DNA of 19,353 nucleotides, taken from the IMG/VR virus record IMGVR_UViG_2690316316_000017, positions 1-19,353 of that record; one strand, written 5' to 3'. The DNA comes from a virus. Its lineage: Duplodnaviria; Heunggongvirae; Uroviricota; Caudoviricetes. Under the pieces are notes generated by a model that was not told the DNA's origin, did not search any database, and saw only the letters and a program-made list of their open reading frames with translations. A program made the translations under genes and the position numbers. Below are positions 843-17,081 of this stretch, piece by piece. Numbering within the stretch: position 1 is the first letter of the stretch; each line of letters starts with the position of its first letter.

Positions 843-922
843 ATGATGCTGATAATGGACCGCCACCGGGGACTCCGAATCTCGCACAGGGTGACGTTCT
901 TTCCTGATGAGCTAGTGGCGGT

Positions 923-998
923 TGGTGGCCCTTGCTGGATTTGAACCAGCGACCTGGCGATTATGAGTCACTCGCTCTCACCACTGAGCTAAAGGGCC
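923..998 (-). tRNA. tRNA with CAU anticodon, most likely tRNA-Ile2 (lysidine type, ileX/ileZ-like), 76 nt
   Basis: Reverse complement GGCCCTTTAGCTCAGTGGTGAGAGCGAGTGACTCATAATCGCCAGGTCGCTGGTTCAAATCCAGCAAGGGCCACCA: acceptor GGCCCTT/AAGGGCC, anticodon loop CTCATAA, T arm GCTGG-TTCAAAT-CCAGC, CCA end. Closely resembles E. coli tRNA-Ile2 as I recall it. Met versus Ile2 cannot be settled from the anticodon alone. Confidence 0.75.
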
Positions 999-1038: not shown

Positions 1039-2097
1039 TCACTCTCTCTTTCTGATTAAATTCTGTACATCCCTTGCGGTCTGCTCAAAACGTCCGGTCT
1101 CCAGCTCAACGCCAATTGCACGACGCCCCAGTGCATTCGCTGCTTTGACTGTCGAACCGGACCCCATGAAGAAATCTGCAACCAGGTCTCCCGGACGACT
1201 GCTGGCGGTAATCATTTGCCGCAACATATCTGCCGATTTTTCACAGGGATGTTTGCCCGGATAATACTGCACAGGCTTGTGCGTCCAGACATCCGTATAA
1301 GGAACGGCTGCCGATACGGAAAAATAACGCCGCAGTGATTTGTACTCTTCCAGCAGGCTGGCATACTGCCGGTTCAGCTCACTGTATGTGCTGACCAGTT
1401 GGTGATGTGGCTTTTCCAGTTCACCCCGCTGATGTTTCTCTTCTGCCACCCGGGCAAACAGCACCTGAAGTTTTCTGTAATCATCCTCGTTCGGTAACTG
1501 CCACTGGCTGGCACTGAACCAGTGCGACACCATGTTTTTCTTTCCTGTGGCATCCACAATCTGTTTTGCCGTTATCCCCAGAGCAGCACGCGCATCACGA
1601 AAGTAAGAAATCAGCGGGGCCATCACATGCTGTTTCAGTGCCCTGCCCTTCGCCTCATACCCGGCATCTTTCGGGCGATATGGCCCCTGGTAATGTTCAG
1701 CAAACAGAACGCGCTCTGTGGCAGGAAAATATGCGCGCAGACGTTCTTTATTACACCCATTCCAACGTCCGGACGGCTTCGCCCAGATGATATGGTTAAG
1801 CACGTTGAAACGTTCACGCATCATGATCTCAATATCAGATGCCAGGCGATGCCCACAGAACAGGTAAAGGCTTCCGGCAGGTTTTAACACCCGCCAGAAC
1901 TGGGCCAGACAGTGGTCCAGCCACTTAAGGTAATCTTCGTCCCCTTTCCACTGATTGTCCCAACCGTTGGGTTTCACCTTGAAGTAAGGCGGATCGGTAA
2001 CAATCAGGTCAATGGAATCATCAGGCAGGGACTGAATAAAATGCAGGCAATCAGCGTTGATTAAATCAACACTGTTTATTTTTACAGTATTTTTCAT
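1039..2097 (-). CDS. site-specific DNA methyltransferase (N6-adenine/N4-cytosine class, DPPY motif), likely orphan phage MTase
   Basis: 352-aa ORF with IVTDPPYF near the N-terminus and FMGSGST (FxGxG AdoMet motif) near the C-terminus, the order expected for beta-class amino-MTases. No adjacent restriction endonuclease gene. Confidence 0.8.
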   Translation of the reverse strand: MKNTVKINSVDLINADCLHFIQSLPDDSIDLIVTDPPYFKVKPNGWDNQWKGDEDYLKWLDHCLAQFWRVLKPAGSLYLFCGHRLASDIEIMMRERFNVLNHIIWAKPSGRWNGCNKERLRAYFPATERVLFAEHYQGPYRPKDAGYEAKGRALKQHVMAPLISYFRDARAALGITAKQIVDATGKKNMVSHWFSASQWQLPNEDDYRKLQVLFARVAEEKHQRGELEKPHHQLVSTYSELNRQYASLLEEYKSLRRYFSVSAAVPYTDVWTHKPVQYYPGKHPCEKSADMLRQMITASSRPGDLVADFFMGSGSTVKAANALGRRAIGVELETGRFEQTARDVQNLIRKRE

Positions 2098-2728: not shown

Positions 2729-3670
2729 ATGGCTACTATTGCGCAATCAAAGAAACAAAAAAAACTTAAAATTGGTTTTTACACCAGCAGTTCTGGGACT
2801 ATCCGCAGCCATTCAGTTGCTAAGCAAGCAATTGAAAATCTGTATAATACTTGCGTAACCGTTACGAATAATCATTTTGATACCATCTATAGAAATAAAA
2901 AGTTAAAAATAGCTTTTATAAATAAAGATACAAAAGCTAAATATTTCTTCGGCTACATGTCATGCTCACGAGAAGAGTATCTCCTTCCTTATATTGGTGA
3001 TGAACACTGGAATGAGCACAACATACCACTAGATGATAAAAAATACATAGTCGAAAGAACCTATTTTTTATATTATTACGATAGTGATATTTTAATATTA
3101 ACTCAAAATCATCTTGGGCCGAAAGAATCGGATTTAGCTTATCTGCTTTACAGCCAGAGTGGTAATCCTGGAAATAACTTTGCATTCCAAGCCATCTGGA
3201 AAAAAGAGAGCGTCAAAGAGCTACTTGAAACAGGAAGTACTTTGAGAAGTTGTGATATTGTCCTGGCTGCTCCCAGGAACTTTGATGCAACAAATTACCA
3301 GCTAAATAGTTCATTTTCTAAGGAACTGGTAAATATGATGGTAGGGCTGGGTGGAACACGTCTCAAGTTAAATCTAAGGGGACGTGCATCAGGGAGAGTA
3401 AAAGTCAAAGGTTATTTATCAGATCTCGTTAAGGATGGTATTAAAGAACTCCTTGAAAAAATGCCGGGAATTGTAAAAAAAGCGGCAGTAACACAGCCCA
3501 AAAATACCGTTGAACAAAGTCTTCTTGATCAGGTACTCATTTCAGAAAAAAACATATATACCGTTAATGGTTATGGCACTGATAGTGATGTTCTGCAAGC
3601 CATGATTTCTGCTAAAATTGATAACAATGAATACCTTAAGCAATACGATATCAGCAAAAAGAAGGTATAG
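2729..3670 (+). CDS. hypothetical 313-aa soluble protein, first gene of the AT-rich two-gene cassette
   Basis: Long ORF with AAGG 6 nt upstream of the ATG. AT-rich codon usage unlike the flanking phage genes. Opposite strand to Q and the late genes. No catalytic motif recognised. Confidence 0.75.
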   Translation: MATIAQSKKQKKLKIGFYTSSSGTIRSHSVAKQAIENLYNTCVTVTNNHFDTIYRNKKLKIAFINKDTKAKYFFGYMSCSREEYLLPYIGDEHWNEHNIPLDDKKYIVERTYFLYYYDSDILILTQNHLGPKESDLAYLLYSQSGNPGNNFAFQAIWKKESVKELLETGSTLRSCDIVLAAPRNFDATNYQLNSSFSKELVNMMVGLGGTRLKLNLRGRASGRVKVKGYLSDLVKDGIKELLEKMPGIVKKAAVTQPKNTVEQSLLDQVLISEKNIYTVNGYGTDSDVLQAMISAKIDNNEYLKQYDISKKKV

Positions 3671-3673
3671 GAT

Positions 3674-4117
3674 ATGTTATTGAAATACTTAAGAAACCTG
3701 ATTGTAAGTGTTTTTTGCACCTTGTTCCTACTGAGGTATATCCCTCAGATGGGGCATGCTGACATACTTACAGCCTCCGGGGTTATTTCAACTGTATCCG
3801 GTATTTTATTTGGTTTTATTTTAGCCACAATATCAATTTTTAGTGCTGCTAGCGAAAACTCAAATGGAATAATAAAAGCATTAAAAAACAACAACATACT
3901 TCAAGTTATTATTGTAAATCTATTAACCGCAGGTGCATCTTTAATTACGGCATGCGTTATTGCTTTGATAGCAATGTTTGCCAATGAAAAGACATTGTTA
4001 CATGGAGAAAAAATAGAATTTATTTTAATTATCGAATCGTTATCTCTTCTTATCATTTCAGTAATAACTTTTGCCTTTACATGGAGAAAAGTAAACTGGA
4101 TACTCCCCCACATTTAA
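3674..4117 (+). CDS. hypothetical 147-aa multi-pass membrane protein (3-4 predicted TM helices), second gene of the cassette
   Basis: Starts 4 nt after the upstream stop. Hydrophobic stretches LIVSVFCTLFLL, ILTASGVISTVSGILFGFILATISIFSAA, ILQVIIVNLLTAGASLITACVIALIAMF, IEFILIIESLSLLIISVITFAFTW. Ends directly at the terminator. Confidence 0.7.
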   Translation: MLLKYLRNLIVSVFCTLFLLRYIPQMGHADILTASGVISTVSGILFGFILATISIFSAASENSNGIIKALKNNNILQVIIVNLLTAGASLITACVIALIAMFANEKTLLHGEKIEFILIIESLSLLIISVITFAFTWRKVNWILPHI

Positions 4118-4140: not shown

Positions 4141-4503
4141 CTACTCCATTTCAAGTTTAACATCCAGCATTGAAAGGCATCCATCAATAAACCCTTCAGC
4201 CATCTGTATCTCTATACGTATCAATTTCTCATCTTTTTTGCGAGCTCTTGCAAGCTTTCTTTTCGAGATGCCATACAGGTAATGGGCCACAATCAAAGAA
4301 TGCTCGTACGGTTTTCGCTTTTTAAGAAGAGCAAGACAACCTTCAATAATTAATGCATCACTATCTGAACAAGCCTGACGTGTTTTGCTTGTATAGGGAA
4401 GAAGCCCTTTAAACCCAGCAGCTATAGGAGAATAGTCTACTCCTGAACTATCACTCGCCGCCCATGCTCCCCAACGATCCAGAACCATTTGAATATCACG
4501 CAT
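4141..4503 (-). CDS. late-gene antitermination protein Q (short QuuD-like type), about 120 aa
   Basis: N-terminus MRDIQMVLDRWGAWAA... matches my recollection of DLP12 QuuD-type Q proteins. The track ORF starts at TTG 4518; the ATG at 4503 has GGAG 8 nt upstream. Sits at the end of the nin-like region, as Q does. Confidence 0.75.
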   Translation of the reverse strand: MRDIQMVLDRWGAWAASDSSGVDYSPIAAGFKGLLPYTSKTRQACSDSDALIIEGCLALLKKRKPYEHSLIVAHYLYGISKRKLARARKKDEKLIRIEIQMAEGFIDGCLSMLDVKLEME

Positions 4504-4520
4504 CAACTTTCTCCACAAAA

Positions 4521-9722: not shown

Positions 9723-10376
9723 ATGATGAACATGAGTGATCGTATTCGCCAAAGGCGAAAAGAACTGAACCTGACACAACAAGCACTGGCTGATTTGACT
9801 GGTGTGAACCGTGTCACGGTTACTGGATGGGAAAAGGACGACTACCAACCAAATGGAGCCAACCTTCAAGCCCTAGCCAACGCACTTAAATGCGATCCTC
9901 TGTGGCTTGTTAGCGGAAAAGGCTCGCCTGAACCAAAGATAAATCTAAAACCTGAAATATTCGCAGTTAAAAAAGTCCCCCTAATCTCGTGGGTTCAGGC
10001 GGGTTCATGGACAATGACGGAGCCTGGTGTCAGGAAAGAAGATGCTGAAGAGTGGGTTTATACTACCGCCCTTGTATCAGAAATGGCATTTGCACTACGG
10101 GTCCGTGGTGATTCAATGACCAATCCCCTCGGCTCACCATCGATACCAGAAGGTTCTATCGTTATCGTAGAGCCAGATATTATTGATACAGAGTGTATTA
10201 ACGGAAAAATCGTTGTTGCCCATATCAATGGTGGGCAAGAAGCGACACTCAAAAAATTTGTTGAGGACTGGCCGAACAGGTATCTCGTCCCACTAAATCC
10301 TAACTATAAAACTATTGAATGCGGTGAGAACTGCAGAATAGTTGGTCTTGTCAAACAAGTAATAATGGATTTTTGA
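9723..10376 (+). CDS. cI-type prophage repressor (HTH_XRE N-terminal domain plus LexA-like S24 autopeptidase domain)
   Basis: 217 aa. HTH LTQQALADLTGVNRVTVTGWE. Catalytic Ser in RVRGDSMTNP and Lys in GQEATLKKF, the Ser-Lys dyad of SOS-cleavable repressors. Divergent from cro. Confidence 0.9.
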   Translation: MMNMSDRIRQRRKELNLTQQALADLTGVNRVTVTGWEKDDYQPNGANLQALANALKCDPLWLVSGKGSPEPKINLKPEIFAVKKVPLISWVQAGSWTMTEPGVRKEDAEEWVYTTALVSEMAFALRVRGDSMTNPLGSPSIPEGSIVIVEPDIIDTECINGKIVVAHINGGQEATLKKFVEDWPNRYLVPLNPNYKTIECGENCRIVGLVKQVIMDF

Positions 10377-10396
10377 CACATCTTCCTCACTATCGC

Positions 10397-10422
10397 AAAA
10401 CCGGGGTATCCCCGGTTTTTTT
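10397..10422 (+). terminator. rho-independent terminator after cI
   Basis: AAAACCGGGG-TAT-CCCCGG-TTTTTTT beginning 21 nt after the cI stop. Confidence 0.7.
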
Positions 10423-10439
10423 ATGAGCCTATCTTTTTA

Positions 10440-10495
10440 TGTAGGATAACCAACATAAACTCTTGACACTCACATGTTGGATATCCTACATTTGT
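10440..10495 (+). promoter_or_regulatory. OL/PL-like operator-promoter module driving the plus-strand early operon
   Basis: TGTAGGATAACCAACAT (10440-10456) and inverted ACATGTTGGATATCCTACA (10472-10490) bracket TTGACA (10463-10468); -10 candidate TACATT (10487-10492) with 18-bp spacer. Almost identical to the PR module. Confidence 0.6.
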
Positions 10496-10650
10496 TTTTA
10501 GAGTTGTGGTGAATGCGCAGGCTGATGCGCGAAAGACATTGCAGCTATTGCGGAAAAGAGCTGTTCGGCGGGGCAATTAAACGCCCGTGAGAGTCTGAAA
10601 TAACCGCAAGCCGGAGATCAGCACCGGTCACCACAACAGCCACTGCTTTG

Positions 10651-10698
10651 GCGGTACCAGTTTGTACACTTGCTTCCGGCTGGTACCGCTCTTTTTAC
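10651..10698 (+). terminator. terminator-like hairpin in the PL leader, followed by a boxA-like motif
   Basis: GCGGTACCAG - 19 nt - CTGGTACCGC (perfect 10-bp arms) followed by TCTTTTT. The T-tract is part of GCTCTTTTTACAA, which resembles the boxA consensus. Confidence 0.4.
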
Positions 10699-10833
10699 AA
10701 AACAGAGAAGAGCATCACCGGACGACGGGCTCATAACCCAATCCATCCGGGCGGCTGCCACCGCAGGTGTTCTTCTCTGTTTTGTGGAGAAACCAACCGA
10801 CCTTACAGGGTCGATATGATGAGGAGCAGCAAA

Positions 10834-11196
10834 ATGGCTAGCGAACGCAGTACTGATGTGCAGGCATTTATCGGGGAGCTGGACGGCGGCGTATTTGAAA
10901 CCAAAATCGGCGCTGTTCTCAGTGAAGTCGCTTCCGGTGTGATGAACACGAAAACCAAAGGTAAGGTCTCGCTCAACCTGGAAATCGAACCGTTTGATGA
11001 GAACCGTGTGAAAATCAAACACAAACTCTCATATGTTCGCCCGACTAACCGCGGGAAAATTTCTGAAGAAGACACCACCGAAACGCCGATGTATGTCAAT
11101 CGCGGTGGTCGCCTGACTATTCTGCAGGAAGACCAGGGACAATTACTGACTCTTGCCGGTGAACCTGACGGAAAACTCCGCGCAGCAGGTCATTAA
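10834..11196 (+). CDS. hypothetical early protein, 120 aa (YfdP-like by position and size)
   Basis: Track ORF 10648..11196 trimmed to the ATG at 10834 (MASERSTDVQ...), which has GAGGAG 7 nt upstream. First gene after a 330-nt leader. Size matches K-12 yfdP from memory. Confidence 0.55.
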   Translation: MASERSTDVQAFIGELDGGVFETKIGAVLSEVASGVMNTKTKGKVSLNLEIEPFDENRVKIKHKLSYVRPTNRGKISEEDTTETPMYVNRGGRLTILQEDQGQLLTLAGEPDGKLRAAGH

Positions 11197-11261
11197 TATC
11201 GTTCTTAATTAACTGATTATTTATCTCATCACTGAATATCTTTATATAGTGAGGACTTATT

Positions 11262-12086
11262 ATGTCTCAGAACTTAGACGCAACCGCAATTAATCAAATC
11301 CATGCCCTTATTTCTGCTCAGGGTGTTAATGAAATTATCAGTAAGATTGGTGCCGATGCTGTGGCATTGCCTGAGAATTTCCGCATTCATGATCTGGAAA
11401 AATTTAATTTAAATCGCTTCCGTTTCCGTGGTGCGCTTTCCACTGCCAGTATCGATGACTTTACCCGTTATTCTAAAGATCTTGCAGATGAAGGCACCCG
11501 CTGCTTTATCGATGCCGATAATATGCGTGCCGTCAGTGTGCTTAACCTGGGTACTATTGATGAACCAGGTCACGCAGATAACACCGCCACTCTCAAACTG
11601 AAAAAGACAGCACCGTTCTCTGCCCTGTTGTCTGTTAACGGCGAGCGTAACTCCCAGAAATCACTGGCAGAATGGATTGAAGACTGGGCCGACTACCTTG
11701 TGGGCTTTGATGCTAATGGTGACGCCATTCAGGCAACAAAAGCGGCGGCGGCAATCCGTAAAATCACGATTGAAGCAAACCAGACCGCTGATTTTGAAGA
11801 TAATGACTTCAGCGGCAAACGCTCCCTGATGGAATCTGTCGAAGCGAAGACCAAAGACATTATGCCAGTGGCATTTGAATTTAAATGCGTTCCATTTGAA
11901 GGCCTGAAAGAACGTCCGTTTAAATTACGACTCAGCATTATCACTGGCGATCGTCCTGTACTGGTTCTGCGCATTATTCAGCTGGAAGCGGTGCAGGAAG
12001 AAATGGCTAACGAATTTCGTGATCTGCTTGTTGAGAAATTCAAAGACAGCAAAGTAGAAACCTTTATTGGTACTTTCACCGCCTGA
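11262..12086 (+). CDS. yfdQ: YfdQ-like protein (DUF2303 family), 274 aa
   Basis: GAGGA 6 nt upstream of the ATG. Length equals K-12 yfdQ as I recall it and it sits directly upstream of an HD-domain gene, the KplE1 yfdQ-yfdR arrangement. Symbol is by synteny and size, not alignment. Confidence 0.55.
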
Positions 12087-12098
12087 TTTCATTACTGC

Positions 12099-12122
12099 AA
12101 ATGCCCCTGCGGGGGCATTTAT
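12099..12122 (+). terminator. intra-operon hairpin (possible attenuator/weak terminator) after the yfdQ-like gene
   Basis: ATGCCCC-TGCG-GGGGCAT (7-bp GC-rich stem) followed by TTTAT; the T-tract is short. Confidence 0.35.
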
Positions 12123-12214
12123 GGAAACGTAATTAACTCAATAATCACCGGATGGTGAGGGCTTCCTTTTACCAGAATTCAGTGCGGTGCAGCGCAAATA
12201 ACGTGGAGAACAAA

Positions 12215-12751
12215 ATGTCATTTATTAAAACTTTTTCTGGGAAGCATTTTTATTATGACAGGATAAATAAAGACGACATCGTTATTAACGATATCGCGGT
12301 TTCCCTTTCAAATATCTGTCGCTTTGCAGGACATCTTTCACACTTCTACAGCGTCGCCCAACATGCGGTTCTTTGCAGCCAACTGGTACCGCAGGAATTT
12401 GCTTTTGAAGCGTTAATGCATGATGCAACAGAAGCATATTGCCAGGACATCCCCGCACCACTGAAACGCCTTCTTCCTGACTATAAACGGATGGAAGAAA
12501 AAATAGACGCCGTAATCCGTGAGAAATACGGGTTACCTCCTGTTATGAGCACGCCAGTGAAATATGCCGATCTCATTATGCTGGCAACCGAACGCCGCGA
12601 TCTCGGGCTTGATGATGGCTCTTTCTGGCCTGTACTGGAAGGTATCCCGGCGACAGAGATGTTCAAAGTTATTCCACTGTCACCAGGCCATGCCTACGGG
12701 ATGTTTATGGAACGTTTTAACGAGTTATCGGAGTTACGCAAATGCGCATGA
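12215..12751 (+). CDS. yfdR: HD-domain phosphohydrolase, YfdR-like 5'-deoxynucleotidase, 178 aa
   Basis: Track ORF trimmed to the ATG at 12215, which has GGAGA 5 nt upstream. HD metal-binding motifs H (SVAQHAV) and HD (ALMHDATEAY). Length equals K-12 yfdR (recollection). Confidence 0.7.
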   Translation: MSFIKTFSGKHFYYDRINKDDIVINDIAVSLSNICRFAGHLSHFYSVAQHAVLCSQLVPQEFAFEALMHDATEAYCQDIPAPLKRLLPDYKRMEEKIDAVIREKYGLPPVMSTPVKYADLIMLATERRDLGLDDGSFWPVLEGIPATEMFKVIPLSPGHAYGMFMERFNELSELRKCA

Positions 12752-13104
12752 ATGTTTTCGAAATGGAAGGGGTTCTTCGCGGGAAATGTGTACCGCGAGA
12801 TCTGAAAGTGAACGAAACAAATGCTGAGTACCTGGTACGTAAATTCGATGCGCTTGAAGCTAAATGTGCGGCACTGGAAAACAAAATAATACCAGTGTCA
12901 GTTGAACTGCCACCAGCAAATGAAAGTGTTCTGTTATTTGATGCTAACGGAGAAGGCTGGCTAATTGGCTGGCGTTCTCTCTGGTACACCTGGGGACAAA
13001 AAGAAACCGGAGAATGGCAGTGGACATTTCAGGTCGGGGACCTTGAAAACGTCAATATCACTCACTGGGCAGTAATGCCGAAAGCACCGGAGAATAAGAA
13101 ATGA
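12742..13104 (+). CDS. YfdS-like protein with DUF551-like C-terminal region, 120 aa
   Basis: GGAG 8 nt upstream of the ATG. C-terminal W-rich block GEGWLIGWRSLWYTWGQKETGEWQW...THWAVMP resembles the C-terminus of the 396-aa protein at 15001..16191. Confidence 0.6.
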   Translation: MRMNVFEMEGVLRGKCVPRDLKVNETNAEYLVRKFDALEAKCAALENKIIPVSVELPPANESVLLFDANGEGWLIGWRSLWYTWGQKETGEWQWTFQVGDLENVNITHWAVMPKAPENKK

Positions 13105-13304
13105 GCGTGATAAAAACTCATACAGGAATTGTTATCACCCGAGACGGTCCGCAGGTAAAAAAACTGCACCAGACAAAGCGGATGTGGGTCGTCGGAAAAA
13201 ACGAGTTTTACCACAAAGAAACCGGACGCCGCCACTTTGCAGAAAATACGCGCCGCCGACTGCTGATCGACAGCATCAAGCCTATCGAGGTGATGCATGT
13301 TTAA
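13101..13304 (+). CDS. hypothetical small basic protein, 67 aa
   Basis: ATGA overlap with the upstream stop; GGAGA 7 nt upstream of the ATG. Confidence 0.5.
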   Translation: MSVIKTHTGIVITRDGPQVKKLHQTKRMWVVGKNEFYHKETGRRHFAENTRRRLLIDSIKPIEVMHV

Positions 13305-13536
13305 CCAGAACGAAAAATCTATCGCTCAAATTGCTGAGTATATCCCACGTGCGTGCCGGGGTATGCAGTTGCAGGAAGCCAAAGCGCGCCTGGAGAAAAA
13401 AATTGCGCTCTATATCGATGACGGCTGTGATGCTGCCGTTCTTAACGCAGCGTTCGCGCCAGCTCTTAACAGTCATACGCGGGAGTCTTTTTTTTCGCGC
13501 ATCGCAGCGCAGATCCGTAAAGGAGGCAACCAGTGA
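13297..13536 (+). CDS. hypothetical protein, 79 aa
   Basis: ATG with GAGGTG upstream; overlaps the upstream stop by 8 nt and the next gene by GTGA. Confidence 0.5.
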   Translation: MFNQNEKSIAQIAEYIPRACRGMQLQEAKARLEKKIALYIDDGCDAAVLNAAFAPALNSHTRESFFSRIAAQIRKGGNQ

Positions 13537-14231
13537 GCGAGATTAACTATCAGGCTCTGCGACTGGCGGCAGAAAATGCAACACCAGGCGAATGGTGTGC
13601 TGATGACTACCATGGAGTAATTGCCGATGCCGGACTGAACGCCAATTACTACATAGCATCATGCTCAGGACCGGATAATCGCTCCAATAAACGATTCATA
13701 GCCGCAGCCAATCCGGCTACCGTGCTGGCACTGCTGGATGAGAACGAAAGCATGTGCCGCGACCTCATTGCTCGCAATGGTGAGATTGAAGGGCTTCGAA
13801 AACTGGTTGCTGAACTTGAGGAGACAAAATCAAAACTCAACGAGCAGCGTGAATATTACGAAGGTGTTATCTCGGATGGAAGTAAGCGTATTGCTGAACT
13901 GGAGAAAAGCGAAGAGCAACTCATCAGCGAGCGTGATCATGCTGAGTCTGCTTTAGCTGATATGTATTTTGCAGCAACCGGGGATAGGCCGGAGTGGAGC
14001 AACTTGTTCGGCTTTTCAGATGCTGTAGATGCCGTGGTTGACAGAATTGCTGATTTAGAAGCTAAACAGCCATCGCCAGTAGTACCGGAAGGACTGATTA
14101 AAGCGGTGCGTTTTTATGAGCAGGTAAAACGTGAGAACCCGCCAGTCGAAACCGGAGCATGGAAAGACGCTGTTGACTGGGTGCTCAAAGAGGCTTGCCC
14201 GGCTGTAAACATTGGCATCAAAGGAGAGTGA
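13533..14231 (+). CDS. Ea22-like coiled-coil early protein, 232 aa (GTG start)
   Basis: GTG at 13533 has AAGGAGG 6 nt upstream. N-terminus MSEINYQALRLAAENATPGEW resembles ead/Ea22-like proteins (recollection). Central region is heptad-like and charged. Confidence 0.55.
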   Translation: MSEINYQALRLAAENATPGEWCADDYHGVIADAGLNANYYIASCSGPDNRSNKRFIAAANPATVLALLDENESMCRDLIARNGEIEGLRKLVAELEETKSKLNEQREYYEGVISDGSKRIAELEKSEEQLISERDHAESALADMYFAATGDRPEWSNLFGFSDAVDAVVDRIADLEAKQPSPVVPEGLIKAVRFYEQVKRENPPVETGAWKDAVDWVLKEACPAVNIGIKGE

Positions 14232-14233
14232 GA

Positions 14234-14725
14234 GTGCAGATTTCACCGGTTACTCTTCGTGTTGCGAAGGCGTTTATATCCAGACATCACCGACACAATA
14301 AACCCCCGGTGGGGCATAAATTCAGCATTGGTCTGAGAAATGATGCCGGAGAATTGATAGGTGTGGCGACAGCCGGTAGACCTGTTGCACGACATTTGGA
14401 CGATGGATTAACGCTTGAAGTAAATCGCACATGTACCACAGGAGAACGCAACGCTAACAGCGCGCTTTATGGTGCTGTCTGGCGGGCAGCAAAGGCTATG
14501 GGTTATCAACGTTGTATTACGTACACCCAGGCAGATGAATCAGGAGCATCTCTTCGCGCAGTTGGTTTTGTTCGTGTGAAAGAGCTTCCTCCAAGAAAAA
14601 GCTGGGCGGAATCAAGCGTCGCCCTGCGGAGTAAACGCGATCCGGTCGGAAACGGTGGTGTTCCTCGTGTGCTCTGGGAAATCAGGAGAATGAGTACCAC
14701 TGGCATTCGCATCAAAGGAGAGTGA
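14234..14725 (+). CDS. hypothetical protein, about 163 aa (GTG start)
   Basis: Track ORF 14195..14725 trimmed to GTG 14234, which has AAGGAG 7 nt upstream inside the 17-bp junction repeat. Ends with ...IRIKGE, as the previous gene ends with ...IGIKGE. Confidence 0.5.
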   Translation: MQISPVTLRVAKAFISRHHRHNKPPVGHKFSIGLRNDAGELIGVATAGRPVARHLDDGLTLEVNRTCTTGERNANSALYGAVWRAAKAMGYQRCITYTQADESGASLRAVGFVRVKELPPRKSWAESSVALRSKRDPVGNGGVPRVLWEIRRMSTTGIRIKGE

Positions 14726-14726
14726 T

Positions 14727-14990
14727 ATGGCAACTTTGACAAAAAAGGAACAGGCATGGTTGAGCGAATTACAGAACGTTCTTGATCGCTGCCCGTCACC
14801 GAAAAAAATTGGTTTTTACACCATTGGCGATAAAAACATTTACCTGTATGACCTACGCCGCATGGATGAAATCATGGAGGCTCTTGATAATCGTTCGTCA
14901 ATGGATTGGTGTGTTGCTGTCCATGATATGAATGCCGGATTTGAAGAAAAGATTTTGTTCCCCTCGTCAGTTGAAAGCACAGCGGGTTAA
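14727..14990 (+). CDS. hypothetical protein, 87 aa
   Basis: ATG 1 nt after the upstream stop, with the SD supplied by the junction repeat. Confidence 0.55.
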   Translation: MATLTKKEQAWLSELQNVLDRCPSPKKIGFYTIGDKNIYLYDLRRMDEIMEALDNRSSMDWCVAVHDMNAGFEEKILFPSSVESTAG

Positions 14991-15000
14991 GGAGTAACAC

Positions 15001-16191
15001 ATGACCACTATTACCAAAGAGCGACTACTGACAATCAAGCAGTGGCGCGAAACATACGGACCTGGTAGCAACGTTGTACTGCCAGCAGAAGAAGCGGAAG
15101 AACTGGCACGAATTGCTCTGGCATCGCTGGAAGCAGAGCCTGTGGCGTCATGCATTATTGAAGATGGGTGCATGTGTGTTGACGGGTTCGGTGAGTATGT
15201 TGGTCACTCGCTGCCTGATGGAACGCACCAGCTATACGCCGCCCCGCCAGTGCCTGATAAGTTGCCGCGTGAATACAGAAACGGTTGGCCTCTTGCGTAT
15301 AGTGATTATGCTGAAGGCTGGAACGACTGCCGCGAAGCCATGCTTCAGTCCGGAAACTTTCGGGAAAACAAGAATTCGTCAACCAATAATTTTCGGGAAA
15401 TCGCGGAAACGTCAACCAACTATCCGGTAATTCCTAGTGAGGTGTTGTCCGCAATCCTGAAGGTTGCCAAGATTCGTGCCGATTTCAATGATTTTGACGG
15501 TGACAGGCGAGGTATCGGTGATTGTCTGGATGAGGCCGAGCAAGAGCTTATCGTTACCATTAACAAATATGCCAGTCGGTTGGCAGTAGAGCCGGTAGTG
15601 CCTGCTGTTCTGGAACGTTTGCGAACCATTGTAGCGGACCCACGCGCATTACCTCGCAGAAAAGAATGGGTTAGTGGGCAGCAGTACAGTTACGTACTTC
15701 TCGAAAACGTAGAAGCTATGGTTGATGAAGCCTGCCACGCTGCCATGCTTCAGGGTAGCCAACCTGTAAGCCAAACTTACAACTTGCCAGAATTAATCGA
15801 AGGCATGGAAGTTTCCATTGATGTAAGCACTTGTGATGCTGATTTAGGTAATCGCTATTTCGGCACCGTCACCGAGGCGTTAGAACTTGATACAGCCAAG
15901 AATGGTTACATCCTCCTGGTTCAGGACGCAGAGCCAAACTTCGATGTAAATGGCAACTCTCCGGGAACTCCGGATAGTTGGATAAGCTGTAGTGATCGAA
16001 TGCCTGAAAAGGGCCAGAACGTGCTTATTTCGGTGAATTTCGATAGCTCTCTGGTTGAACCGCTAATATGCTCCGCACGCTATACCGGAAGCACCTTTCG
16101 GCGCGGAGATGCAACGATTAAGCCGGGTAATGGTATTGAGCAAGCAACTCACTGGATGCCGCTACCGGAACCGCCGCAGGAGGTGAAGTGA
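15001..16191 (+). CDS. DUF551-domain phage protein, 396 aa
   Basis: AAGGAG 6 nt upstream of the ATG. C-terminal block SWISCSDRMPEKGQNVLISVN...THWMPLPEPP is typical of DUF551. Contains a 33-bp in-frame tandem duplication. Confidence 0.7.
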   Translation: MTTITKERLLTIKQWRETYGPGSNVVLPAEEAEELARIALASLEAEPVASCIIEDGCMCVDGFGEYVGHSLPDGTHQLYAAPPVPDKLPREYRNGWPLAYSDYAEGWNDCREAMLQSGNFRENKNSSTNNFREIAETSTNYPVIPSEVLSAILKVAKIRADFNDFDGDRRGIGDCLDEAEQELIVTINKYASRLAVEPVVPAVLERLRTIVADPRALPRRKEWVSGQQYSYVLLENVEAMVDEACHAAMLQGSQPVSQTYNLPELIEGMEVSIDVSTCDADLGNRYFGTVTEALELDTAKNGYILLVQDAEPNFDVNGNSPGTPDSWISCSDRMPEKGQNVLISVNFDSSLVEPLICSARYTGSTFRRGDATIKPGNGIEQATHWMPLPEPPQEVK

Positions 16192-16763
16192 TGAACAACT
16201 TAATGATCGACCTTGAGACGATGGGGAAAAATAAGGATGCACCGATCGTTTCCATTGGCGCGGTGTTCTTCACTCCAGAAACCGGAGACATCGGACAAGA
16301 ATTCTATACGGTTGTTAGCCTGGAAAGTGCTATGGGGCAAGGAGCTACACCTGACGGCGATACCATCCTGTGGTGGTTGAAACAAAGCCCTGAAGCACGA
16401 GCTGCAATCTGTATTGATGATACTTTGTCGATCAGCGATGCACTCTCTGAACTGAACCATTTCATTAACCGGCACGCAGACAATACGAAATATTTAAAAG
16501 TCTGGGGTAACGGAGCCACCTTCGACAACGTAATTTTACGTGGGGCTTATGAGCGAGCAGGACAAATCTGTCCATGGGCGTACTGGAATGACCACGATGT
16601 ACGCACGATCGTTACGCTTGGGCGTTTCATCGGATTCGACCCCAAAATGGACATGCCTTTCGATGGCGAACGGCACAACGCCCTGGCTGATGCCCGTCAT
16701 CAGGCAAAATATGTTTCCGCTATCTGGCAGAAATTAATTCCTGCCACCAGCACAGAATTATGA
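16191..16763 (+). CDS. DEDD-family 3'-5' exonuclease (DnaQ/epsilon-like), about 190 aa
   Basis: Exo I motif MIDLETMG and Exo III motif HNALADARH. GGAGG 7 nt upstream of the ATG at 16191, which overlaps the upstream stop. Confidence 0.75.
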   Translation: MNNLMIDLETMGKNKDAPIVSIGAVFFTPETGDIGQEFYTVVSLESAMGQGATPDGDTILWWLKQSPEARAAICIDDTLSISDALSELNHFINRHADNTKYLKVWGNGATFDNVILRGAYERAGQICPWAYWNDHDVRTIVTLGRFIGFDPKMDMPFDGERHNALADARHQAKYVSAIWQKLIPATSTEL

Positions 16764-16799
16764 TTTTCCCGGGTGCAGCCGGTTTTGATGGAGAAAATT

Positions 16800-17081
16800 A
16801 TGAACACCTTGTTTTTACTGATGGCTGAATTCAATACCCCTAACATTGAACTCTCAGCAGTTAGCCAAAAGTACTTTGGCATGAGTCCAGCCACGGCAGA
16901 AGCAAAAGCAAACGCTTGTAAGTTGCCCGTTCCAACATATCGCATCGGCACATCACAAAAAGCAAAACGTTGCATCAATATTCAGGATCTTGCGGAATAC
17001 ATAGACAAAAGACGAGAAGAAGGACGTATCGAGTGGGAACAGGTCAGAACAGGCAAACAGAAGGGCAAAGAACATCACTAA
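16800..17081 (+). CDS. PrtN-family DNA-binding protein (putative excisionase-like regulator), about 93 aa
   Basis: Track ORF 16773..17081 trimmed to the ATG at 16800, which has GGAGA 5 nt upstream. N-terminus MNTLFLLMAEF resembles PrtN/excisionase-like proteins (recollection). Last gene of the operon. Confidence 0.5.
   Translation: MNTLFLLMAEFNTPNIELSAVSQKYFGMSPATAEAKANACKLPVPTYRIGTSQKAKRCINIQDLAEYIDKRREEGRIEWEQVRTGKQKGKEHH

Follow-up and report, generated by a model that had tools for sequence, protein, structure and literature searches.

Results

Genomic context of the leader

All coordinates are positions within the window, meaning the whole 19,353-nt stretch of DNA that was analysed. It comes from a lambdoid prophage of the Stx2c, mEp460 and SfV type, of which it forms the immunity and early region, and the piece of interest (10496-10833) is the leader separating the promoter PL from the first gene of the early-left operon. 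The leader is 99.8% identical to Stx2c phage records, and 100% identical to one E. coli chromosome. The surrounding features are as follows.

Minus strand, read leftwards: genes for Cro, a CII-like protein, an O-like replication protein, Dam, RusA, KilA-N, DUF968 and Q
4141-4518, minus strand: Q antiterminator, the sole antiterminator found by Pfam and PHROGs
9688-9659, minus strand: PR-side promoter, with the same hexamers as PL
9723-10376, plus strand: cI-like HTH/S24 repressor gene, followed by its own terminator and then PL
10439-10456 and 10474-10491: operator-like inverted repeats flanking PL
10463-10492, plus strand: PL-type promoter (-35 TTGACA, 18-nt spacer, -10 TACATT)
10821-10826, plus strand: SD of the first gene (GAGGAG), the AUG being at 10834
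10834-11196, plus strand: first gene of the PL operon, yfdP family (phrog_204, unknown function)
Plus strand, after the yfdP-family gene: DUF2303 (yfdQ), HD phosphatase, DUF551, an Ead/Ea22-family gene and others

The original prediction was correct in naming the promoter PL: it is of the early-left type, and the long leader behind it is highly structured and non-coding. The first gene begins at 10834, not 10835, behind an SD at 10821-10826. Transcription from PL probably starts near 10499. Homology with mEp460 begins at approximately 10500, placing a mosaic joint at this presumed transcript start. Neither Pfam nor PHROGs assigned an N-like antiterminator to the PL operon, in agreement with the earlier claim that none of the downstream proteins is of this type. 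A scan of the plus strand from 10800 to 17080 detected no terminator-like sites with more than four G-C pairs. Hence nothing within the PL operon requires processive antitermination.

A modular and mosaic leader

Four features had been predicted in the leader, namely a hairpin, a boxA-like string, an inverted repeat and a 25-codon ORF, and all were found where they had been placed. Folding, which had been proposed as a check, found the leader to be far more stable than shuffled sequences (-140.9 kcal/mol, z -6.13; 0 of 100 shuffles equally good), with 10638-10649 pairing with the SD and AUG region in the whole-leader fold. The Rfam search proposed alongside it returned no match to the leader, either at the gathering score across the whole window, or at E <= 10 across 10380-10900. 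The leader was divided into a first module (M1), a terminator (T2) and a second module (M2), with a conserved tail and a small hairpin lying between M2 and the SD.

10503-10637, plus strand: M1, an STnc100/PasD-like RNA body with a closing helix, two hairpins and a variable interior
10503-10511 with 10629-10637: closing helix of M1 (GUUGUGGUG/CACCACAAC)
10651-10698, plus strand: T2, an intrinsic terminator with a G+C-rich stem of 10-13 bp and a loop of 15-19 nt, followed by CUCUUUUU
10697-10785, plus strand: M2, a three-way hairpin, in which P1 pairs 10697-10716 with 10766-10785
10718-10750, plus strand: P2 of M2, with the loop CUCAUAA at 10730-10736
10726-10739, plus strand: CGGGCUCAUAACCC, 14 nt, the same as the E. 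coli initiator-tRNA anticodon stem-loop, three G-C pairs included
10751-10764, plus strand: P3 of M2
10786-10813, plus strand: conserved tail GGAGAAACCAAC and then hairpin H4 (10798-10813, CGACC-UUACAG-GGUCG)

Relatives share the leader block by block, and it is therefore mosaic: the shared sequence starts at approximately 10500 in mEp460, only at 10629 in many Stx2c and cdt phages, and at approximately 10649 in SfV, while Salmonella ST64B shares only 10691-10797, at 85% identity. Sequences matching the 338-nt leader are present in 2611 of 5426 complete E. coli genomes. The CPS-53 element of E. coli K-12, which carries yfdP to yfdT, has had the leader deleted, with approximately 25 nt left before yfdP. 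Longer leaders, including those of ST64B, phiNP and LLS among others, contain extra modules that have T-arm-like hairpins and are closed by ACACAAC...GUUGUG stems, along with a second terminator. H4 recurs with differing stems and a loop of the U(U/G)GCAG type, and by itself folds no better than shuffles (z -1.0).

A conserved terminator between the modules

The hairpin and U tract predicted at 10651-10698 are present, with arms at 10651-10660 and 10680-10689 that form the expected 10-bp stem and can be extended to 13 bp. This fold has a stability of -21.2 kcal/mol (z -4.65), which none of 200 shuffles equalled. T2 was kept in 23 of 26 lineages, in which 7-13 bp of G+C-rich stem are followed at once by C/U-U5-7-AC and then by the stem of M2, and at least eight different stem sequences were observed, including GGCGGUACCAG, GUCGGCGUC, UGCCCAUCG, GCGGCGCCAG, GCGGCAUCC, GGCGGUUAUCCA, GGGGCGGUAACA and CUGGCGG. 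Such a variety of stems before an invariant U tract is the signature that a selected intrinsic terminator would be expected to leave. T2 has the G+C-rich hairpin, the immediate U tract and the retention in relatives by which intrinsic terminators are recognised, although its loop is longer than usual. It was missed by a simple terminator scan because this loop is 15-19 nt. The three explanations originally offered for the leader were a nut-like or put-like antitermination element, a riboregulator, and a terminator gating the operon; the last is the best fit, both through these covarying stems and through the coincidence of T2 with the 3' end of STnc100 in relatives.

The boxA-like string GCTCTTTTTACAA is indeed present at 10688-10700, but the part of it that resembles boxA is not conserved, with GCUC reading GCCC, GACC, CACC, GCAU or AGCC in relatives, because these are the last four bases of the variable T2 stem. 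This bears on the proposal that the leader contains a lambda-type nut site, consisting of boxA and a boxB-like hairpin, on which an N-like protein would act, the Arg-rich peptide of 25 residues being a candidate for it. GCUCUUUUUACAA does resemble boxA and is followed by a hairpin, and the 25-codon ORF (10513-10590), whose translation is as originally given, begins MRRLMRER. However, the AUG of this ORF lies inside a conserved RNA motif, GGUGAAUGCG, and neither its length, nor its sequence, nor even the AUG is conserved: other M1 variants encode MRLSARG (7 aa), unrelated peptides of 18, 35, 38 or 39 aa, or have no AUG. Its only SD-like bases are 1 nt from the AUG and paired in the closing helix of M1, and the peptide matched no family in Pfam or PHROGs. 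Its Arg-rich start is the translation of the GCGC...GCGC hairpin, and the reading of the ORF as a gene was rejected. A lambda-type nut site was likewise rejected as a candidate, as no CGCUCUUUA-like boxA is conserved, no cognate Arg-rich N protein is encoded, and no nutR-like copy is found in the window, the PR side included. Hence the nut-like element suggested by the original prediction is extremely improbable.

M1 and the STnc100/PasD family of small RNAs

Within its closing helix, M1 begins with GAAU and a 5' hairpin (GCGC-AGGCUGAU-GCGC) and ends with a 3' hairpin (CCGG-AGAUCAGCA-CCGG), the interior between them being variable. The covariation that had been put forward as a further check was found in the stems of M2 and T2; in the closing helix of M1, three compensatory pairs were seen, with a score that did not exceed shuffles. 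Once aligned, the interiors of M1 proved too heterogeneous for a third covariance model, which was therefore dropped.

STnc100, a multi-copy sRNA of prophages with no known function, is expressed in EDL933, where a Northern blot detected a 191-nt copy (PMC5331693), and one copy lies 75 nt after stx2 (PMC12370729). PasD, an sRNA detected by Hfq RIL-seq, is reported to be a structural relative of STnc100 (2026 preprint, bioRxiv 10.64898/2026.05.13.724894). The M1 variant in the window did not match the Rfam STnc100 model (RF02076; gathering score 47 bits) at E <= 10 within 10380-10900. In the related loci L044, L040, L092 and L009, whose T2 and M2 are nearly identical to those of the window, the M1 slot together with T2 is a full-length match to this model, at 49.1 bits in L044 and at 44.7, 43.2 and 43.0 bits among the other three (gathering score 47). 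In all four loci, the model ends within the U tract of T2. Partial matches were found in ST64B and in one P1-like plasmid. When the Rfam consensus was compared with the fold of the window by inspection, M1 and T2 had the architecture of STnc100. As true STnc100 variants fill the same slot in near-identical relatives, M1 and T2 are read as a divergent allele of the STnc100/PasD family, with the kinship being one of shared architecture and position.

M1 also occurs outside phage leaders. P1-like plasmids have a copy 98.5% identical to that in the window, located after tRNA-Asn and tRNA-Thr, with a compensatory change in the closing helix (GUUGUGAUG/CAUCACAAC). This copy sits inside a tandem array of M1-like and M2-like modules, of approximately 930 nt, that extends up to tciA. 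Furthermore, the module in the M1 position of two related loci scores as a tRNA (43.9 bits in L106 and 40 bits in L088), with 64 nt replacing the anticodon arm.

M2 is a covarying RNA with an initiator-like anticodon arm

The perfect 15-bp inverted repeat noticed originally (10697-10711 and 10771-10785) was confirmed as the core of a 25-nt repeat (10697-10721 and 10761-10785), which is 84% complementary. The perfect 15 bp are particular to the lineage of the window, and most M2 copies have a mismatch at one stem position. The element folds at -47.8 kcal/mol (z -6.96). Across 22 diverse copies, 94.8% of cells were paired in the M2 structure, compared with 38-50% when partners were slid; nine pairs had changed on both sides (one being GC in 12 copies and CG in 10), and 0 of 500 shuffles reached the observed covariation score. 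With the M2 covariance model, the copy in the window scored 109 bits on the plus strand, as against 41.5 bits on the minus strand, and no second copy was found in the window, the PR side included.

Some records instead annotate this region as encoding small proteins on the opposite strand (for example, mEp460_036 and mEp460_037). Open reading frames do exist mechanically at 10618-11022 and 10421-10576 on the minus strand, and several phage records have hypothetical proteins annotated where the match lies. However, P3 of M2 varies from 14 to approximately 40 nt, and the total lengths of M2 copies differ by 1, 2, 3, 4, 23 and 27 nt, which breaks any frame and thereby excludes coding on either strand. 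The substitutions are changes in paired helices, and the M2 model strongly favours the plus strand. Hence we give the annotated proteins almost no credence.

The invariant part of M2 is the P2 arm, which is more conserved than the long stem, and which contains CGGGCUCAUAACCC. A 45-nt query containing CGGGCUCAUAACCC had matches of 100% identity in 5426 of 5426 E. coli genomes, with a median of four copies, annotated as tRNA-Met. Among viral contigs, changes at the three positions of the CAU were found at 4, 3 and 0 loci, compared with at least 120 canonical loci, such that CAU is strongly, though not absolutely, kept.

Further copies of the M2 core were sought by a pattern scan of viral contigs, which returned at least 120, of which 79 were distinct. 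A relaxed scan of genome contigs returned many chance matches outside of Enterobacterales, and was filtered with the M2 model. The copies form two classes. Class A, which has the long stem, was found at at least 120 loci, and 105 of the 112 that were testable follow a cI-like gene encoded on the same strand. The tail GGAGAAACCAAC is invariant among these copies, and in species-representative genomes the M2 model scored them at 94 bits or above in at least 12 genera of Enterobacterales. They precede, at differing distances, four unrelated types of first gene: the yfdP family, a gene for a 305-aa protein, which we take to be RdgC-like, an HD/YfdR-like gene, and an Xis-like gene. These unrelated first genes and the cI-linked position mean that M2 is associated with the position of the promoter rather than with a particular gene. 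Class B comprises 14 loci in Klebsiella-type phages, where the stem is 6 bp (GGCCUG/CAGGCC) and is followed by (A/G)CCA. Here M2 closes an array of tRNAs downstream of Q: it begins approximately 6 nt beyond the final tRNA, a gap equal to those between the tRNAs themselves, and conservation ends directly after the CCA.

Neither form is recognised as a tRNA: ARAGORN (standard and -mt) and the Rfam tRNA model made no tRNA call for M2 or for class B, and lowering the thresholds of ARAGORN yielded only noise. Because tRNA detectors reject both forms, the M2 core is called tRNA-like here on the grounds of its position, its CCA end and its anticodon arm. Only the last of these is seen in the M2 of the window, at 14 of 14 bases, whereas the CCA end and placement in arrays are traits of the class B relatives. 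No Rfam family matched M2, at the gathering score on the whole window or at E <= 10 on 10380-10900, and no prior description was found in the literature on tRNA-like leaders in lambdoid or P1 phages. M2 therefore appears to be an undescribed element.

An alternative is that M2 is mainly a cis-regulatory element of the 5' UTR, either an RNase III site, as in the N leader of lambda, or a stabilising structure at the 5' end by which translation or half-life of the early-left mRNA is set. A covarying 20-bp stem directly upstream of the SD region would suit such a role, as would the pairing of 10638-10649 with the SD and AUG region in the whole-leader fold, and the ST64B feature covering M2 and the first gene is expressed approximately five-fold above the next gene. 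Yet the core, with a 6-bp stem and CCA, occurs in tRNA arrays far from start codons, with several copies in the P1-like arrays, while class A precedes unrelated genes at varying distances, and it is the anticodon-like arm, not the long stem, that is most conserved. This makes a primarily cis-regulatory function rather unlikely.

Expression of a homologous leader

The leader of the ST64B prophage shares T2 and M2 with the window, at the 85% identity described above, and published data are available for its expression in S. Typhimurium D23580. STnc1310, an annotated ncRNA of this prophage, shares its induction with the two genes that follow cI (PMC7067206). It maps to the PL leader of ST64B, and its end falls within the U tract of another leader terminator, upstream of T2, rather than that of T2 itself. 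Under peroxide and nitric oxide shock, respectively, expression was 2249 and 2373 TPM for STnc1310, 1085 and 1276 TPM for the feature covering M2 and the first gene, 188 and 224 TPM for the second gene, 58 and 63 TPM for the third, and 25 and 34 TPM for the fourth (PMC7067206, supplement). Such polarity fits attenuation and stable leader RNAs, rather than processive antitermination, although differences in RNA stability could contribute to it, or even account for it in place of termination.

These data bear on whether the leader is a cis-acting processive antiterminator RNA, analogous to put, in which M1 or M2 would bind RNA polymerase with no phage protein being needed. Such an RNA would explain how expression of the operon is allowed despite the terminator inside the leader, in the absence of any N-like protein from the PL operon. 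In addition, the leader RNA is strongly structured and conserved, and M1 begins approximately 4 nt after the presumed transcript start, as does putL. However, several observations stand against it. Firstly, a put covariance model (R1), built from six put RNAs (putL and putR of HK022, and putL of HK639, CobraSix, S9-5 and phiEt88), recovered the training members that were searched at 55-97 bits, but even with filters off it matched nothing in the window at E <= 10, and it scored at most 10 bits in the related loci searched. Secondly, the element is single-copy, with none in the PR operon. Thirdly, M2 is downstream of T2, and hence cannot act upon it. Fourthly, M1 and M2 occur in tRNA arrays, and copies of the STnc100 family after stx2, settings to which antitermination is irrelevant. 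Fifthly, the plus strand between 10800 and 17080 lacks terminator-like sites of more than four G-C pairs that would need to be overcome. Finally, expression of the homologous ST64B operon drops approximately 40-fold or more along its length, rather than remaining level. The put-like option of the original prediction is therefore improbable. M0, the module directly after PL in ST64B and phiNP, was also considered, as it is put-like by eye through a GGAUGA motif; the put model did not match it, and it was rejected.

Discussion

Two RNA modules separated by a terminator

Taken together, these results make it reasonably probable that the leader consists of two exchangeable non-coding RNA modules behind PL, separated by a terminator, rather than being a site of antitermination. 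Once PL is derepressed, RNA polymerase would start near 10499 and transcribe M1, and a large share of PL transcripts would stop at T2, at approximately 10696-10698. This would release an sRNA of approximately 200 nt with STnc100/PasD architecture; the predicted transcript (10499-10698, plus strand), comprising M1 and T2, is drawn from the promoter, the terminator and the boundaries of STnc100 in syntenic relatives. By stopping transcription there, T2 would also be an attenuator, limiting flow into the early-left operon. The polymerases that read through would transcribe M2, a very stable three-way hairpin approximately 50 nt before the first gene. M2 may then act as an RNA, and may be excised from the leader via its 20-bp stem. 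The data show the structures, how they are conserved and covary, how the modules are distributed, and that nut and put do not fit; for the phage in the window, termination at T2, release of the sRNA and any activity of M2 are what we infer.

M1, M2 and the modules at the M1 position recur in tRNA arrays or score as tRNAs, which suggests that the leader was assembled from a pool of tRNA-derived RNA modules, common to the early promoters and tRNA arrays of temperate enterobacterial phages. As the M2 core is elsewhere the last unit of a tRNA array, ending in CCA, M2 would be an RNA that mimics tRNA. Its distribution argues in favour of an RNA with an action of its own, and its anticodon arm points to a partner that reads initiator tRNA. 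We tentatively raise the possibility that M2 belongs to an undescribed class of phage tRNA mimics, without D or T arms, that act in trans on readers of the initiator anticodon arm, with leaders and tRNA arrays drawing on the same tRNA-derived pool. In such a mimic, the acceptor-like stem, carrying CCA in the array form, and P3 would stack like the acceptor/T minihelix, while the long arm would end in a copy of the anticodon stem-loop. It would be made early from PL, or together with phage tRNAs. M2 could be a decoy for nucleases that cut the anticodon loop of initiator tRNA, such as VapC-type toxins and defence nucleases; alternatively, it could bind the 30S P site, IF3 or MetRS.

The phages that carry M2 or the leader include Shiga-toxin, cdt and serotype-converting phages, in which this region is annotated as empty, or as encoding spurious small proteins. 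In N-less lambdoid phages of the window type, a terminated sRNA and a second structured RNA, rather than nut or put at PL, would precede the early-left genes, and models of early regulation in these phages need changing accordingly. The STnc100/PasD family would be linked with a defined promoter, with a defined moment, namely prophage induction, and with a tRNA-like ancestry. M2 provides a concrete candidate for a phage tRNA mimic of the initiator anticodon arm, with a bearing on tRNA-targeting defence and on the counter-measures of phages.

Comparison with known systems

[quoted passage not shown] The PL leader of lambda is long and untranslated, with an RNase III hairpin in the N leader. Hence nutL and this hairpin share with the window a long untranslated PL leader and a long duplex just before the first SD, whereas the conserved boxA, the boxB-type hairpin and the N protein have no equivalent in the window. 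In the lambda 6S RNA and StxS, as in the window, a strong phage promoter is followed within approximately 200 nt by an intrinsic terminator, such that an sRNA is the default product and read-through generates the operon mRNA. Sy et al. (2020) are said to have described StxS, from PR'-tR', as a short terminated phage transcript with sRNA activity. These transcripts come from a late promoter with override by Q, whereas that of the window comes from PL, with no antiterminator evident.

The closest likeness of M1 and T2 is to STnc100/PasD, with which they share the closing helix (UGGUG.../...CACCA), the 5' hairpin after GAAU, the 3' hairpin before the closing strand, the short spacer, the U-tailed terminator and the location in lambdoid prophages. 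The differences are that M1 has a different interior, is transcribed from PL under repressor control, and has M2 and an operon behind it, while most of the STnc100/PasD copies reported to date are in late regions or downstream of stx2.

The C4-type RNAs offer a comparison for M2. P1 c4 and P4 CI, which are processed by RNase P, and the stable RNAs of the T4 tRNA cluster are small phage RNAs that lie within leaders or tRNA clusters. They have an acceptor-like stem and CCA, and owe their maturation to tRNA-processing enzymes; class B M2 resembles them in its tRNA-like end with CCA. M2 in the window is unlike C4-type RNAs in having a 20-bp stem, no CCA and no evident antisense target, and the Rfam C4 model (RF01695), which detects a true C4 elsewhere in the relative L092, had no match in the leader at the gathering score or at E <= 10. 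M1 and T2 belong to a known kind of sRNA, of which they are a new variant, while M2 appears to be undescribed.

Structured modules in related leaders

The early-left promoter PL is immediately followed by a conserved module of ~65 nt, AGCGAACAGGCAGGACGCCCACGAAGUAGCCGCC...GGAUGAUUCGCU, in several phages, ST64B and phiNP among them (loci L006 1930-2010, L007 1830-1905 and L101). This module was considered as a put RNA, being put-like by eye, and was rejected on finding no match with the covariance model of six HK022-type put RNAs. A second motif, CCACCG(A/C)GCCUGA(U/A)GUGGU(G/U)AAAAG(A/C)CAGGC, recurs in the leaders of L008, L009, L012, L020, L040, L041, L044, L092 and L101. In it, CCAC is complementary to GUGG and GCCUG to CAGGC, and the two pairs are interleaved, an arrangement suggestive of a pseudoknot close to where many of the related leaders begin.

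At the position of the STnc100-like module M1, the modules of L106 (1077-1203, minus strand) and L088 (1800-1925, plus strand) match the Rfam tRNA family at 43.9 and 40 bits, respectively. Their acceptor, D and T arms are present, with the anticodon arm replaced by ~64 nt; ARAGORN made no tRNA call on either.

The three-way hairpin M2 of L092 (9212-9335) is a mosaic, in which the 5' arm comes from the window's lineage, and arm P3 and the 3' arm from another, with one mismatch left in the stem. Recombination therefore occurs within the M2 element. Two small RNAs of the same locus lie adjacent to each other, ~3 kb from its PL leader:

L092 5934-6021, minus strand, C4 antisense RNA (82 bits)
L092 6046-6122, minus strand, isrK RNA (60 bits)

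In CPS-53 of E. coli K-12 (L134 5240-5615), the leader upstream of yfdP is entirely lost, and the last ~25 nt before this gene now border directly on tandem repeats of the GATTTTGACGGGTCA type that come from the yfdO side.

Leader folding and neighbouring genes in the window

When the window's whole leader was folded, the spacer between M1 and the T2 terminator (10638-10649, AGCCACUGCUUU) paired with 10823-10839, the SD/AUG of the first gene (GGAGCAG...AUGGCU), a predicted pairing that might form a long-range block to this gene's translation. The distal early-left operon encodes:

16188-16763, plus strand, Rv2179c-like 3'-5' exoribonuclease
16773-17081, plus strand, PrtN-like protein

This phage exoribonuclease could be relevant to trimming of the leader RNAs.

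Downstream of Q are:

766-842 and 923-998, minus strand, two tRNA genes, one with a CAU anticodon (its arm tRNA-Ile2-like), the other tRNA-Arg(UCU)
843-922, minus strand, 80-nt inter-tRNA spacer
165-668 and 1039-2097, minus strand, two protein genes, one for a DNA methylase and one of the TerB family

Between Q and the methylase gene, two genes oriented opposite to those surrounding them look like an inserted accessory or defence-type pair:

2729-3670, plus strand, DUF6731 protein gene
3674-4117, plus strand, gene for a 147-aa protein of no family

The inter-tRNA spacer contains a long-range pairing, ACCGCCAC...GUGGCGGU, and may be a further degenerate tRNA-like module. The order of tRNAs followed by a TerB gene (tciA) is also present on P1-like plasmids, where the gap between them is occupied by an array of RNA modules.
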